A DNA stretch of 64,000 nucleotides from Candidatus Babelota bacterium (lineage in GTDB: Bacteria; Babelota; Babeliae; Babelales; Vermiphilaceae). The DNA lies in the NCBI GenBank assembly GCA_029262575.1, contig JAJCZC010000023.1, positions 13,959-77,958 of the forward strand. Direction: 5' to 3'. The stretch's first letter is position 1. Each line of letters starts with the position of its first letter. This document shows, piece by piece, positions 8,281 to 38,564 of this stretch. The translations under genes were made by a program, and so were the position numbers. The notes beneath the pieces are model-generated. The model worked only from the letters and a program-made list of their open reading frames with translations. It ran no database searches and was not told where the DNA came from.

Positions 8281-8914
8281 TCGCGTCCATTTAGTTTTTT
8301 ATATTTTATATCATGTGTGTCGTTAAGGAGGGTTTTGTCACCCTCCTTAACAATCCTGGACACCAACATGCTGTTGGATTGCTCTACCGCTAGCCCTTCG
8401 GCCATTATGCCTTTAGGCACCTATGTGCCTACGGCAAATGCCGCGGGATAGCTATCGGAAAAATTTTATAACGTTATATCATCCTACTTATCCGCCACAG
8501 TTGTTTACTCCTTCGAGGCTTTAGCGAAGTAGGATTAACGACGGCGAAAGCGCTCAACGGAGTTGAATGTATCGAAGGGACCATCGAACGCCAGACAGGC
8601 CTTATCTTTAATAATTAAATTGATGCATTTAGCGTATGCGCAAGGCACAAGATCGAGCCCCTTAGAAGCCAAGGGCGAGAGCGGTGGCCGGCAGGCTACA
8701 TTTGCCCTTGCAAGCCGTTGCTGAAAAATAATGCCTTCCATAAGATTTTGGTCGCCTAACAATGTGCAACAACACAAAAGCAAATGTAAGTCGTTTCATA
8801 CGCGACGAAGGGATTCCAAAGGCACAGCCTTGGTGCCTGGAGTGCAGAGGTGTCGGCAAGGACACCTTTGCAACACAATTGATATGAAATATAAAATAAC
8901 TAAATACACGCGCC
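8281..8914. mobile_element. GC-rich TIR-bounded non-coding element, copy 1 (candidate structured RNA / large MITE)
   Basis: ~45-nt imperfect terminal inverted repeats (TCGCGTCCATTTAGTTTTTTATATTTTATATCATGTGTGTCG ... reverse complement of GGCGCGTGTATTTAGTTATTTTATATTTCATATCAATTGTGTTG). 8631-8914 aligns closely with 38280-38564. Several stable hairpins. No credible coding frame. Confidence 0.6.
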
Positions 8915-8951
8915 AATAATCAACAATTAAATTTAACTTTAAGATGGTTCT

Positions 8952-10820
8952 CTAAGAATAAACTTCAACAACCTTCCGCACAATGGAATGTGCATCAATA
9001 CCTTCATAAGCCATTAATTCGTCCGGTGTTGCCGATCGAGGCATTTTATCCACAGCTAAACAATGAATATCAACTTCGGTATCTTTGAGCGCAAAAACAA
9101 CTGCCTCGCCCAAACCGCCATCCAAATAATGATCTTCCACCGTGATTATTTTGTTGCCCGATTTGTGCGCAACTTCAAGCACCGTTTTATGATCAAGTGG
9201 TTTGATAGAATATAAGTCTATAACCGAAATTGAAATGCCTTCTTTAATCAAGTCATCATATGCTGCCAGTGCATTATGCAATGTGATGCCAGCACCAATC
9301 ACGCATACTTTATCATCATCAGATTGAAGCAACACTTTGCATCCGCCAATGGGAAATTCCTCTAACACATCATATAAAACTGGTGTATCCATACGCGTTG
9401 TGCGTAAATAACTGATACCCTGATTATATTCTGCCATTTGATTAACTAATAACCATGTGCTCACCGCATCAGATGGATATAGAACGCACGAACCATAAAC
9501 AGAGCGCATCATTGCAATATCTTCTAGCGCCATTTGTGATGGGCCATCTTTGCCGATCGAAACACCTACATGAGAACCGACCAATCTTAATGCTGCACCG
9601 CCAACTGAGGCCATACGAATTTGATCAAATGCTCGCGTAAAAAATGCACCAAAAGTGGAACAAAATGGCACTTTGCCTCTTTTGTGCAAACCAACTGCCA
9701 TGCCGATCATGTTTTGTTCGGCGATAAAACATTCAATAAAGCGATCACAATACTTTTCAGCAAAAATATTTGCATAAGTTGAATTGCTCACCTCTGCATC
9801 CAAAGCTACAACATCGGTGCACGAAGTGCCCAAACGTGCAAGTGCATGGCCATACGCCTTTCTTGTTGCAATAACTTCACCCTTTTTGAATGTGGGCGTT
9901 CTGGTATCGGTACCAACACAACCTGATGGCTTTACTTCAGTTGGTTCTTCCGGCACTTTAGGCATATATTGTTGCTCAGGTTTATATGACGCTGCAACTG
10001 AAAAACGTACTGCCATTTGATCAATTATTTCTTGCAGCTCATCTTTTGCAAATGTTTTGCCATGAAAACCATTTTTATCTTCAACTTTTTCAACGCCATA
10101 ACCTTTGATCGTTTTTGCAATAATCATTACTGGCTGATCTTCTACTTTACGTGCTTTTTCTAGCGCAGTGATAATCTCCAGCATGTTGTGCCCATCAATG
10201 ATGAATGTTTTCCAACCAAATGCGTGAAACTTGTCTGCATAACGTTTGGCATGATGACCATGCATAGTCTCCCCACGTTGGCCTAAACGATTCATATCAA
10301 CAATACCAATCAAATTTTGGCAATCATAATAAGCACCAAGTTCAGCTGCTTCCCAAATTGAACCTTCGGCAAGTTCACTATCGCCCAACAATACGTATGT
10401 TTTGAAATTGCGATTATCAATCTGGCCCGAAAGTGCCATGCCAACACCAACGGATAAACCTTGGCCAAGCGAACCAGTGGCAGCTTCAGTCCAACGAAAG
10501 CGTGGTGTTGGATGCCCTTCCAACACTGATTCAAATTCACGATAGGTTAACAAATCTTGATCAGTCAAAATGCCTAATTCTTTATATGCAGCATATAAAA
10601 TAGGCGAAGCATGCCCTTTTGAAAGAATAAAACGATCGTTATTTGGATTATTAGGATCATGTGGATCATAATGCATTGCATAAAAAAATAAAGCCGCAAC
10701 AATATCTGCAGCTGAAAGTGCTGAAGTTGGGTGGCCTGATCCTGCCTGACTAGTCATGATAAGTGAAGAGCGACGCATGTTAAATGCAGTATGCTCTAAA
10801 AAATCTTTTATTTCGTGCAT
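8952..10820 (-). CDS. tkt: transketolase
   Basis: 622 aa. SQAGSGHPTSALSAADI (TPP-binding), LLGDSELAEGSIWEA, pyrimidine-binding and C-terminal domains. AAGGAG SD. Confidence 0.95.
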   Translation of the reverse strand: MHEIKDFLEHTAFNMRRSSLIMTSQAGSGHPTSALSAADIVAALFFYAMHYDPHDPNNPNNDRFILSKGHASPILYAAYKELGILTDQDLLTYREFESVLEGHPTPRFRWTEAATGSLGQGLSVGVGMALSGQIDNRNFKTYVLLGDSELAEGSIWEAAELGAYYDCQNLIGIVDMNRLGQRGETMHGHHAKRYADKFHAFGWKTFIIDGHNMLEIITALEKARKVEDQPVMIIAKTIKGYGVEKVEDKNGFHGKTFAKDELQEIIDQMAVRFSVAASYKPEQQYMPKVPEEPTEVKPSGCVGTDTRTPTFKKGEVIATRKAYGHALARLGTSCTDVVALDAEVSNSTYANIFAEKYCDRFIECFIAEQNMIGMAVGLHKRGKVPFCSTFGAFFTRAFDQIRMASVGGAALRLVGSHVGVSIGKDGPSQMALEDIAMMRSVYGSCVLYPSDAVSTWLLVNQMAEYNQGISYLRTTRMDTPVLYDVLEEFPIGGCKVLLQSDDDKVCVIGAGITLHNALAAYDDLIKEGISISVIDLYSIKPLDHKTVLEVAHKSGNKIITVEDHYLDGGLGEAVVFALKDTEVDIHCLAVDKMPRSATPDELMAYEGIDAHSIVRKVVEVYS

Positions 10821-10899
10821 GGGATAATGCTCCTTAGATATGTATACATCTTTTTTTGCATCATCCTAACACATTGGCAAAAAATTGCCTAAAGCTCCC

Positions 10900-11400
10900 C
10901 TATTGATTCAATAGATCATAAATTTCTTTATCCATAGCATGAGCTGCTTTCATTGTTTCTTCTTCATACTTTTTGTTCGCAACCAAAAGTACAGTCGAAA
11001 ATTCTGCTTGAGCTTTTGCTAAAACATCTAAATGCATAAACATTTTTTGGCCGATCTCAGATGACGGATTGGCAAAAAAGTTATTACCGTCCATGCCAAC
11101 TTGCTGTTGTTGAATAAAATCTTTTTTAAAAGATTCAGGATCTTGATAGGTCGCTACAACTTTTAACACTGCCTTTGACGCCGAACAGTTTAAGTGTTGC
11201 CTCGCATGTTTTGCATATGACTCGCCAAACATAGTAAACAAAAAAGATTGCACCTTATCTTGAATGGCGCCTCCAACATTAATTAAGTCTGCATTGGATG
11301 AACTTTTTTCCTTTTTATCATTATCATTGCTCGCTGAACCGCAAATCGACGAAAAGATACACAAGCTTAAAACACCTACAATCATATGATTATGTGCCAT
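10900..11400 (-). CDS. hypothetical secreted protein
   Basis: 166 aa. Hydrophobic leader IVGVLSLCIFSSICGSAS, helical mature part. No domain recognised. Confidence 0.5.
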   Translation of the reverse strand: MAHNHMIVGVLSLCIFSSICGSASNDNDKKEKSSSNADLINVGGAIQDKVQSFLFTMFGESYAKHARQHLNCSASKAVLKVVATYQDPESFKKDFIQQQQVGMDGNNFFANPSSEIGQKMFMHLDVLAKAQAEFSTVLLVANKKYEEETMKAAHAMDKEIYDLLNQ

Positions 11401-37631: not shown

Positions 37632-37701
37632 CCATTGCCCTTTTTGTTGGGAAATTAATTAAAGACGTATATTAAAAAAAAATGATCAAATGAGCAAGAA
37701 C

Positions 37702-37914
37702 CTATTTTTTCTTATTTTGACGACGCCAGCTTTCTTTGTGTGGCCATGGCAATGAAGTCCAAAAATTTTGTGCACCGCGTGACATTTTGATCAGCTTCGA
37801 TTTGAAACGATCGCGCCAACGATTTTTGAGATCTCGACGATTTATTTCGTCTTTTTTGTCATTTTCTTGTTTTTTGTATGGCTCGAACCCTGGTTCGTTC
37901 TTTGGATTTACCAT
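37702..37914 (-). CDS. small highly basic hypothetical protein
   Basis: 70 aa (MVNPKNEPGFEPYKKQENDKKDEINRRDLKNRWRDRFKSK...RRQNKKK). Strong AAGGAG SD 6 nt upstream of the ATG. First gene of the purF operon. Confidence 0.5.
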   Translation of the reverse strand: MVNPKNEPGFEPYKKQENDKKDEINRRDLKNRWRDRFKSKLIKMSRGAQNFWTSLPWPHKESWRRQNKKK

Positions 37915-38057
37915 GTTATCTCCTTATTTTTATATTATTATCTTAATAGAGATGGGGTGGTAAAAACAACCGTTTGGTTGTTCTTTACCTGAACGGGGTA
38001 TTTTTAATTTTATTTTTTTAATTATTGGCCCTACTTTGCGTAAAGCTATAAAGGACA

Positions 38058-38564
38058 GGCGCGTCCGTTTAGTTTTCTTATATTTCATATCAATTGTGTG
38101 TCCTTAAGGGGGTTTTTGCCAACCCCCTTAAGAATCCCGGGCAAAAAAAGGGAGGGCCCTTTTTTAAAATCCCCTCTTCCGCTTGTCCTTCGGCCATTAG
38201 GCCTTTAGACACCTACGTGCCTACGGCAAATGCCGCGGTAAAGCTACCGGAATATCATTTCTTATAATTTATTACCTATAGCGTATGCGCAAGGCACAAG
38301 ATCGAGCTCCTTGGAGGCCAAGGGCGAGAGCGGTGGCCGGCAGGCTACATTTGCCCTTGCAAGCCGTTGCTGAGGGATAACGCCCTTCATAAAATTTTGG
38401 TCGCCTAACAATGTGCAATAACAGAAAAAGCAAATGTAAGCCGTTTCATACGCGACGAAGGGATTCCAAAGGCGCAGCCTTGGTGCCTGGAGTGCAGAGG
38501 TGTCGGCAAGGACACCTTTGCGACACACATGATATGAAACATAAAATAACTAAATGGCCGCGCC
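38058..38564. mobile_element. GC-rich TIR-bounded non-coding element, copy 2
   Basis: Left end GGCGCGTCCGTTTAGTTTTCTTATATTTCATATCAATTGTGTGTC. Right end is the reverse complement of GGCGCGGCCATTTAGTTATTTTATGTTTCATATCATGTGTGTCG. Core 38280-38564 aligns with 8631-8914 in the same orientation. Confidence 0.6.

Follow-up and report, generated by a model that had tools for sequence, protein, structure and literature searches.

A purine biosynthesis cluster and two direct repeats at the transketolase locus of a Dependentiae genome

Results

Gene order at the transketolase locus

The stretch of DNA analysed here (the window) is 64,000 nucleotides long and corresponds to C23:13959-77958 of G000, the genome of a Candidatus Babelota bacterium (Dependentiae; TM6, Babeliales) that is available as a metagenome-style assembly of 1.67 Mb in 41 contigs and is 95.6% complete. 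Two copies of a non-coding repeat element, A (8281-8925) and B (38060-38566), lie in it in the same orientation and bracket a transketolase gene (tkt), a set of purine biosynthesis (pur) genes and a small basic open reading frame (ORF). A preliminary description of this DNA had taken the arrangement for the geometry of a composite mobile or excisable island. We compared the window proteins by tblastn with the matching regions of seven relatives (G001, G002, G004, G009, G010, G011 and G012), of which G001 and G002 belong to the same genus, and assigned domains to the ORFs in the bracket by Pfam, NCBIfam and PDB searches.

Read from the left, the locus holds hyp299 (7224-8123, plus strand), a member of a local paralog family that adjoins tkt on the left in every relative examined; copy A; tkt itself (8952-10820, minus strand; Pfam); the purine genes; the small ORF, which encodes 70 residues with the motif KMSRGAQN...W.RK.NWRRK (37702-37914, minus strand); copy B; and the right flank, hyp328 and a DJ-1/PfpI protein (38648-40215, plus strand; synteny and Pfam). 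The order in the family is band7, nfeD, hyp312/299 paralogs, tkt (minus), small ORF (minus), hyp328 (plus), DJ-1 and, further on, cyclase, gnd, zwf and pgi; it is kept in G004, G009, G010, G011 and G012, and in G002 across two contigs, and the segment from hyp299 through tkt and the 70-residue ORF to hyp328 is kept in five other genera of the family. The flanking Band-7 protein has homologs from Dependentiae/Babeliales genomes. In G002, G004 and G009-G012, tkt has the same position and orientation (56-68% identity), and homologs of the 70-residue ORF that retain the motif occur in all six of these genomes, always between tkt and hyp328. Since both genes hold family-wide positions between hyp299 and hyp328, they are residents of the locus and not cargo. 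The small ORF lies directly upstream of tkt throughout the family; here it heads the string purF, purB-purM, purD.

What sets G000 apart is the distance between these two residents, which is 17 bp in G010, reaches about 1.5 kb of lineage-specific small genes elsewhere, and is 26.9 kb here. Neither pur genes nor pur relics were found between tkt and the small ORF in the relatives. From this neighbourhood it follows that the extra, lineage-specific DNA in G000 is the segment 10821-37701 (~26.9 kb), which contains the pur genes, genes of native families and the remnant of an insertion sequence (IS). The pur genes are thus inserted relative to all relatives examined, as the preliminary description had anticipated; its expectation that the whole bracketed block would be present or absent as a unit was not borne out, with tkt and the small ORF staying at the locus in the six relatives. 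Each repeat thus lies one resident gene outside the inserted block. The spacer between hyp299 and tkt, which holds A, measures 828 bp, as against 27-46 bp in G004, G009 and G010 and ~680 bp in G002, and the spacer between the small ORF and hyp328, which holds B, measures 733 bp, as against 40 bp in G002 and 87 bp in G010.

The junctions of the insertion (10821-10899 and 37632-37701) contain no repeats. Pfam scans of a selected set of ORFs of at least 100 residues between 8 and 39 kb returned no integrase or recombinase domain, and a scan for tRNA and tmRNA genes found none. The pentose-phosphate genes tal, gnd, zwf and pgi lie outside the bracket, which therefore does not delimit the functional neighbourhood.

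Insertions recur in the family at the interval between tkt and the small ORF. In G012 it holds a lineage-specific gene of 434 residues (G012:C1:1264862-1266693). In G002 two contigs end within it (G002:C20:1-135 and G002:C16:1-125) and share the inverted motif CTTCACGGCAT(N8-9)GTGCGCACTATA; this genome has something unassembled at the same insertion hotspot.

Genes inside the insertion

A minus-strand group (13637-21243; Pfam, NCBIfam) comprises a purC-purE fusion, hyp205, guaA, hyp242, purP2, purP1 and purT, and a plus-strand group (21368-25926; Pfam) comprises a purS-purL fusion, purQ and an EamA transporter. Three genes of native families, hyp563, a gene for a WD40 protein and hyp396 (26183-30811), are interleaved in the cluster, as is a degenerate IS4/IS5-like (DDE_Tnp_1) remnant (30972-31250, plus strand) that is 73-82% identical by blastn to the multi-copy IS of this genome. 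A further minus-strand group (31276-37631; Pfam, NCBIfam, PDB) contains hyp200, purD, a purB-purM fusion and a divergent purF. The tandem purP paralogs (17834-19962) are 36% identical to each other. The PurF-like protein (35682-37631, 649 residues) scores 122 bits against TIGR01134, for which the cut-off is 350, and Pfam calls no phosphoribosyltransferase domain in it; it is 46-51% identical across all Dependentiae-type pur clusters examined (G009, G178, L213 and L214). The genes joined in the purB-purM fusion (33218-35659) are adjacent and slightly overlapping in L213 (13972-16423) and L214 (4018-6523), and separate in G009.

No Pfam or NCBIfam family was matched by hyp166, hyp646, hyp205, hyp242, hyp563, hyp396 or hyp200. 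The proteins hyp563, WD40 and hyp396 have paralogs elsewhere in G000 (30-54% identity), as do hyp646 and the EamA protein, and hyp646, hyp563, WD40 and hyp396 have no counterpart in the other pur clusters. The EamA protein is the exception: the gene for this EamA/DMT transporter (24991-25926) adjoins purQ both here and in G178 (G178:C14:24798-25658; 55% identity), and it may be a member of the purine cluster.

In composition the block resembles its host. For the genes of the block, neither GC content at third codon positions (GC3) nor codon-usage distance departs from the bulk of the genome, and neither shows a break at 8.3 or 38.5 kb, where a compositional discontinuity had been envisaged. 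The GC excess of the block is modest (0.41 vs 0.378) and is located in codon positions 1 and 2, as in tkt and gnd; by tetranucleotide distance the block ranks no higher than the 91st-97th percentile, and regional GC around hyp563-WD40-hyp396 is typical of the genome. These values speak against recent entry from a donor of differing composition. Native composition, interleaved genes with paralogs in the genome and an internal IS remnant together indicate that the block is an established mosaic.

Extent of the encoded purine pathway

Enzymes for the steps from phosphoribosyl pyrophosphate (PRPP) to 5-formamidoimidazole-4-carboxamide ribotide (FAICAR) are encoded: purF (divergent and below the NCBIfam cut-off, as noted above), purD, purT, purL/Q/S, purM, purE, purC, purB and purP. 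A genome-wide search for purA (PF00709) gave no match, while the same search was positive in 14 of 14 control genomes, and a search for the PurO family (PF07826), likewise genome-wide, gave none either. No purH-type protein turned up in the Pfam scans of the window; no genome-wide search for purH was made. Of guaB there is only a C-terminal remnant of 171 residues (C37:21137-21649). With purA absent, no inosine monophosphate (IMP) cyclohydrolase recognised and guaB reduced to a remnant, the earlier statement that every purine biosynthesis gene lies in the bracket proves too strong, although its listing of tkt and the pur genes was mostly correct. As encoded, the pathway would end at FAICAR/IMP, with no recognised route to adenosine or guanosine monophosphate (AMP or GMP). 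Two adjacent PurP paralogs in the company of no identified IMP cyclohydrolase are a pattern described for Crenarchaeota (PMC3261824).

Distribution and phylogeny of the cluster

We surveyed PurP in 31 close relatives and, separately, in 261 species genomes of the phylum. It is missing from 29 of the 31, including both same-genus genomes, and occurs in only three of the 261: G000, G009 and G178, the last of which belongs to another family. In G009, ~40 kb separates the pur cluster from band7; both its locus and its gene order differ from those in G000, and the tkt locus of G009, on the same contig, is free of pur genes. Clusters of the same type occur, in unrelated surroundings, in G178 and on several metagenomic contigs. 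Common to this type are a purP1-purP2-guaA core, a purC-purE fusion, adjacent purB and purM genes and a long purF-like gene, and the core is also found in other Dependentiae-type clusters and in clusters of the candidate phyla radiation (CPR). The nearest outside clusters, from Curtissbacteria and Daviesbacteria, have the purSL-purQ and purP1-purP2 adjacencies with guaA downstream.

In the PurP1 tree, DPANN archaea together with CPR bacteria form the sister group of a clade of 33 sequences (support 100/99). Inside this clade G000 groups with two metagenomic sequences to which it is 95% and 83% identical. In the same tree G009 groups not with G000 but with G178 of another family (support 98/87). 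Several enclosed enzymes had been described as foreign in appearance, and the rarity of PurP in the phylum and the position of the PurP1 clade agree with this.

Two copies of a structured repeat element

A repeat search gave three co-linear direct matches between 8382-8916 and 38174-38566, and A and B are one element present twice in direct orientation, as first reported. Copy A has 645 nt and lies on the plus strand in the spacer between hyp299 and tkt; copy B, also on the plus strand, has 507 nt and occupies the spacer that separates the divergently oriented small ORF and hyp328. Identity between the copies is 92% across the 3' 288 nt and 77% across the 5' ~190 nt, with ~150 extra internal bases in A. 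Both are non-coding, with no ORF of at least 100 residues and a longest ORF of no more than 75. Imperfect terminal inverted repeats (TIRs) of ~45 nt, GGCGCGNCCATTTAG... at the ends, take the form GGCGCGNCCATTTAGTT...ATATCA.TGTGTG in the two copies; the left terminus of A does not have the terminal GG of the consensus. Beyond the ends by 25-45 nt, an outer 17-nt motif, AGATGGYTCTYTAAGAA, stands to the right of A (8942-8958) and to the right of B (38595-38611); that of A overlaps the stop codon of tkt, whose C-terminus is of normal length. No shared bases of the kind expected from a target-site duplication around the pair were seen in 8271-8280 versus 38567-38576 or beyond 38611, a weak negative because the ends of the element are not certainly defined. 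A match to a sigma-70-like consensus (TTGCRA, 18-nt spacer, TAAAAT) occurs in the right TIR of A (8868-8897) and of B (38518-38547); it is a consensus match alone, points outward in both copies, and in B faces hyp328.

A profile search with nhmmer (19 hits, merged), with which blastn agrees, placed substantial copies of the family at 11 loci, plus fragments, on 13 contigs in all. Copies and fragments are found on C1, C2, C5, C6, C13 (three), C14, C16, C21, C30, C35 and C38; they range from ~150 to 650 nt and vary by internal deletions, and the ~45-nt TIRs of A and B recur in copies on C13, C6 and C38. When 11 copies were placed at random on the contigs, an average of 1.4 pairs fell within 30 kb, and 53% of trials produced one or more direct pairs at that distance. 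Since chance alone would yield such a direct pair about half the time in a dispersed family of this kind, the A-B pair is not special; C13 holds a second close pair. The 17-nt motif has only six occurrences in the genome, each 25-45 nt outside an element end, the further sites being C5:69739-69982, C6:5733-5749 and C13:38756-38772; on C5 an element copy has the motif at either side, inverted. The motif resembles an outer terminal repeat.

The range of the element is limited to this genus, in which G001 has two degenerate copies and G002 has none; among the other 77 family genomes searched, seven give fragment matches only, of 25-70 nt. The element was not found in the syntenic regions of the relatives, and exact searches with two core stretches (24 and 21 nt) of genome and metagenome contig collections returned no match. 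Rfam gave no family match for the whole window at gathering cut-offs or for copy A at E-value cut-offs; a sub-threshold match of copy A to U11 (E 0.57) was rejected. A conserved 3' module of ~260 nt has a consensus fold of 58 pairs in which 97.4% of cells are paired and 11 pairs show compensatory changes, and its covariation score of 0.217, as against 0.136 in shuffles, was reached in none of 500 shuffles. Folding of the module favours the plus strand (-52.3 vs -43.8 kcal/mol).

An alignment of the copies with their flanks shows no consistent target-site duplication across the family. For an autonomous parent, BLAST searches of the genome (assembly 95.6% complete) with the TIR return non-coding copies only. 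All-versus-all clustering of ORFs identified a single multi-copy IS, of the DDE_Tnp_1 type (IS4/IS5-like, Pfam), at contig ends; it was rejected as the parent, its end, ...CTTAGCGGAAGTCCTGT, being unrelated to the element TIR, and one element copy on C13 merely adjoins it. This IS interrupts the assembly at the contig ends of C13, C14, C33, C2, C38 and C31. The simplest label for the element is a structured repeat resembling a miniature inverted-repeat transposable element (MITE), and it constitutes an undescribed, lineage-restricted family.

Discussion

The whole is best, and probably correctly, explained by the insertion of a mosaic pur cluster together with an incidental bracket formed by two sister MITE-like copies. 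This explanation starts from three observations: the synteny of the locus, the copy number of the element and the phylogenetic patchiness of the cluster. The cluster, of the folate-independent archaeal/CPR style with PurT and two PurP proteins, is of a type found sporadically and at differing loci in a few Dependentiae, and in G000 it would have entered the variable interval between tkt and the small basic ORF in one event or several. Its most likely arrival would be by horizontal transfer from another Dependentiae-like donor, or else by relocation within the lineage, after which it would have taken up native genes and the IS remnant. Independently, the two element copies would have entered the short spacers on the far sides of tkt and the small ORF, so that the bracket did not, on this account, deliver the block. 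It could nevertheless serve as a substrate for RecA, through which tkt, the pur cluster and the small ORF would be deleted as one.

Several results weigh against this explanation. The same-genus genomes offer no contiguous empty site: in G002 the contig break falls inside the critical interval, and G001 has none of tkt, hyp328, zwf, pgi and purP, while keeping tal, band7, nfeD and the hyp299 paralogs. Contig C5 of G001 ends straight after these paralogs, so either the pentose-phosphate segment has been lost or a contig was not binned. No transfer machinery or boundary signature for entry of the block was found. The pur proteins of G000 and G009 are 49-73% identical, much like core genes (48-67%), and because of this similar divergence an old vertical component in the pur genes must be allowed for. 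Finally, A and B are each other's nearest family members (92% identity, as against no more than 85% to the remaining copies), and they may thus lie close together through local transposition, not as the outcome of two wholly independent insertions.

An alternative that concerns the present and is compatible with the above origin of the block is that A and B make the segment an excisable or deletable island, in which RecA-dependent recombination would yield a ~29.8-kb circle or a deletion in part of the population. Recombination between the copies, with deletion or excision of 8.9-38.1 kb, is mechanistically feasible, as judged from the exact runs of 57, 47, 32, 29, 25 and 22 nt that they share within the 288 nt at 92% identity and from an ORF for RecA with both signature motifs. 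Such an event would remove tkt as well, a gene conserved in most relatives. The segment missing from G001 runs well past B through zwf and pgi, unlike an A-by-B deletion, and since this gap reaches beyond B and may be unassembled, it lends no support to one. Of the hotspot for recombinational loss proposed in the preliminary description, the possibility thus stands and comparative support from G001 does not; we regard an island that excises today as improbable.

The pur cluster could instead have stood at this locus in the ancestor, all other sampled relatives having lost it, with the repeats as relics of, or substrates for, the deletions. Native codon usage and the core-like divergence between G000 and G009 would fit such a history, and genome reduction is common in the phylum (PMC4776705). 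It would demand at least six independent deletions, each restoring the adjacency of tkt and the small ORF without leaving pur relics, and it sits poorly with G009, where the pur cluster and a tkt locus without pur genes are found apart on one contig. The presence of PurP in so few species, the incongruence of its gene tree with taxonomy and the failure to find the element at the relatives' loci speak against it further, and we hold this history to be quite unlikely.

A composite MITE-flanked unit, in which all of 8281-38566, tkt and the pur genes included, would have been carried to this site by a transposase working from the outer ends of the two copies, has in its favour that MITE-flanked mobilisation units are known in other bacteria and that A and B are co-oriented with both TIRs in each, so that their outer ends form a valid pair. 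This reading, which was implied by the island geometry first proposed, fails because only 10821-37701 is extra and the repeats, which belong to a dispersed family, stand one resident gene outside it; with tkt not part of the cargo, delivery of the bracketed segment by a composite transposon is effectively ruled out. The tkt gene and the small ORF keep their family-wide neighbours and orientation, no target-site duplication is visible in the outer flanks, copy A does not have the consensus GG at its left terminus, the copies are 8-23% diverged, and neither an integrase nor a transposase with matching TIRs was found, the sole multi-copy IS ending differently. Equally far-fetched is an assembly or binning artefact that mis-joined the pur block into a Dependentiae contig at the repeats: the metagenome-style assembly is in 41 contigs and repeats break contigs elsewhere, but the block junctions are free of repeats, gene order across the joins at A and B is that of relatives, the block shares the codon usage of the genome, its interleaved genes have paralogs there, and other Dependentiae contigs carry the same cluster type.

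The locus may be compared with several known systems. Like MITE-flanked mobilisation units and IS composite transposons (integron mobilisation units, the MITE-flanked class 1 integrons of Acinetobacter, Tn5/Tn10), it has two co-oriented, TIR-bounded copies ~30 kb apart around a coherent gene set. Unlike them, the bracket holds resident genes in ancestral positions and the true insert has no end repeats; neither a bracketing target-site duplication nor a cognate transposase was found for the pair, and chance predicts such a pair in a family of at least 11 copies. The element itself shares with bacterial MITEs and structured intergenic repeats (Correia elements, RUP/BOX, Nezha, Rickettsia palindromic elements) a small size (~150-650 nt), the absence of coding capacity, TIR-bounded ends, multiple intergenic copies, richness in hairpins and internal deletions. 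It differs from these named families in having no Rfam match, in the compensatory pair changes of its ~260-nt 3' module and in a two-tier terminus composed of an inner 45-nt TIR and an outer 17-nt motif. Classical genomic islands resemble the block in being phylogenetically patchy and inserted against conserved synteny, whereas here no integrase, tRNA or tmRNA was found, the flanking repeats are 0.5-kb dispersed elements rather than att sites, and codon usage is native. The folate-independent pathway of Crenarchaeota (PMC3261824) has PurT, two adjacent PurP paralogs and neither PurO nor PurH2; G000 resembles it in PurT, in the tandem PurP pair and in that no recognisable IMP cyclohydrolase was found. 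The differences are that the present host is a bacterium of a phylum described as lacking nucleoside biosynthesis (PMC4776705), that purC-purE, purB-purM and purS-purL are fused, and that purA is missing and guaB a remnant.

As a claim about mobile elements the finding is ordinary, the bracket being an incidental pair from a dispersed MITE family whose copies are long enough to promote deletions and, possibly, breaks in assembly. Of wider interest is the apparent gain of a near-complete purine pathway, from PRPP to FAICAR/IMP, in a phylum whose members have been described as nucleotide-auxotrophic energy parasites. Published Dependentiae genomes are reported to encode no nucleoside biosynthesis downstream of ribose-5-phosphate (PMC4776705), and a reliance on salvage has been reported (PMC6561590). 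The occurrence of the cluster in three of 261 species at non-homologous loci, notable in itself and peripheral to the matter of the bracket, bears on how obligate symbionts regain metabolic autonomy. We can put forward, as a speculative and rather unlikely possibility, that a Dependentiae lineage re-acquired de novo purine synthesis through a roaming folate-independent cluster, related to those of DPANN and CPR, that passes from locus to locus and lineage to lineage in the phylum, that homologous recombination at the flanking MITE-like copies could make this trait switchable together with tkt, and that copy B could add an outward promoter or a structured RNA between the small ORF and hyp328.

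Further repeats occur on the right side of the window, where tandem paralogous gene families (51823-60040) form the repeat families D1-D5, with 70-91% DNA identity and a spacing of ~5.4-5.9 kb and ~0.7 kb. They have arisen by gene duplication in place and have no relation to the element.

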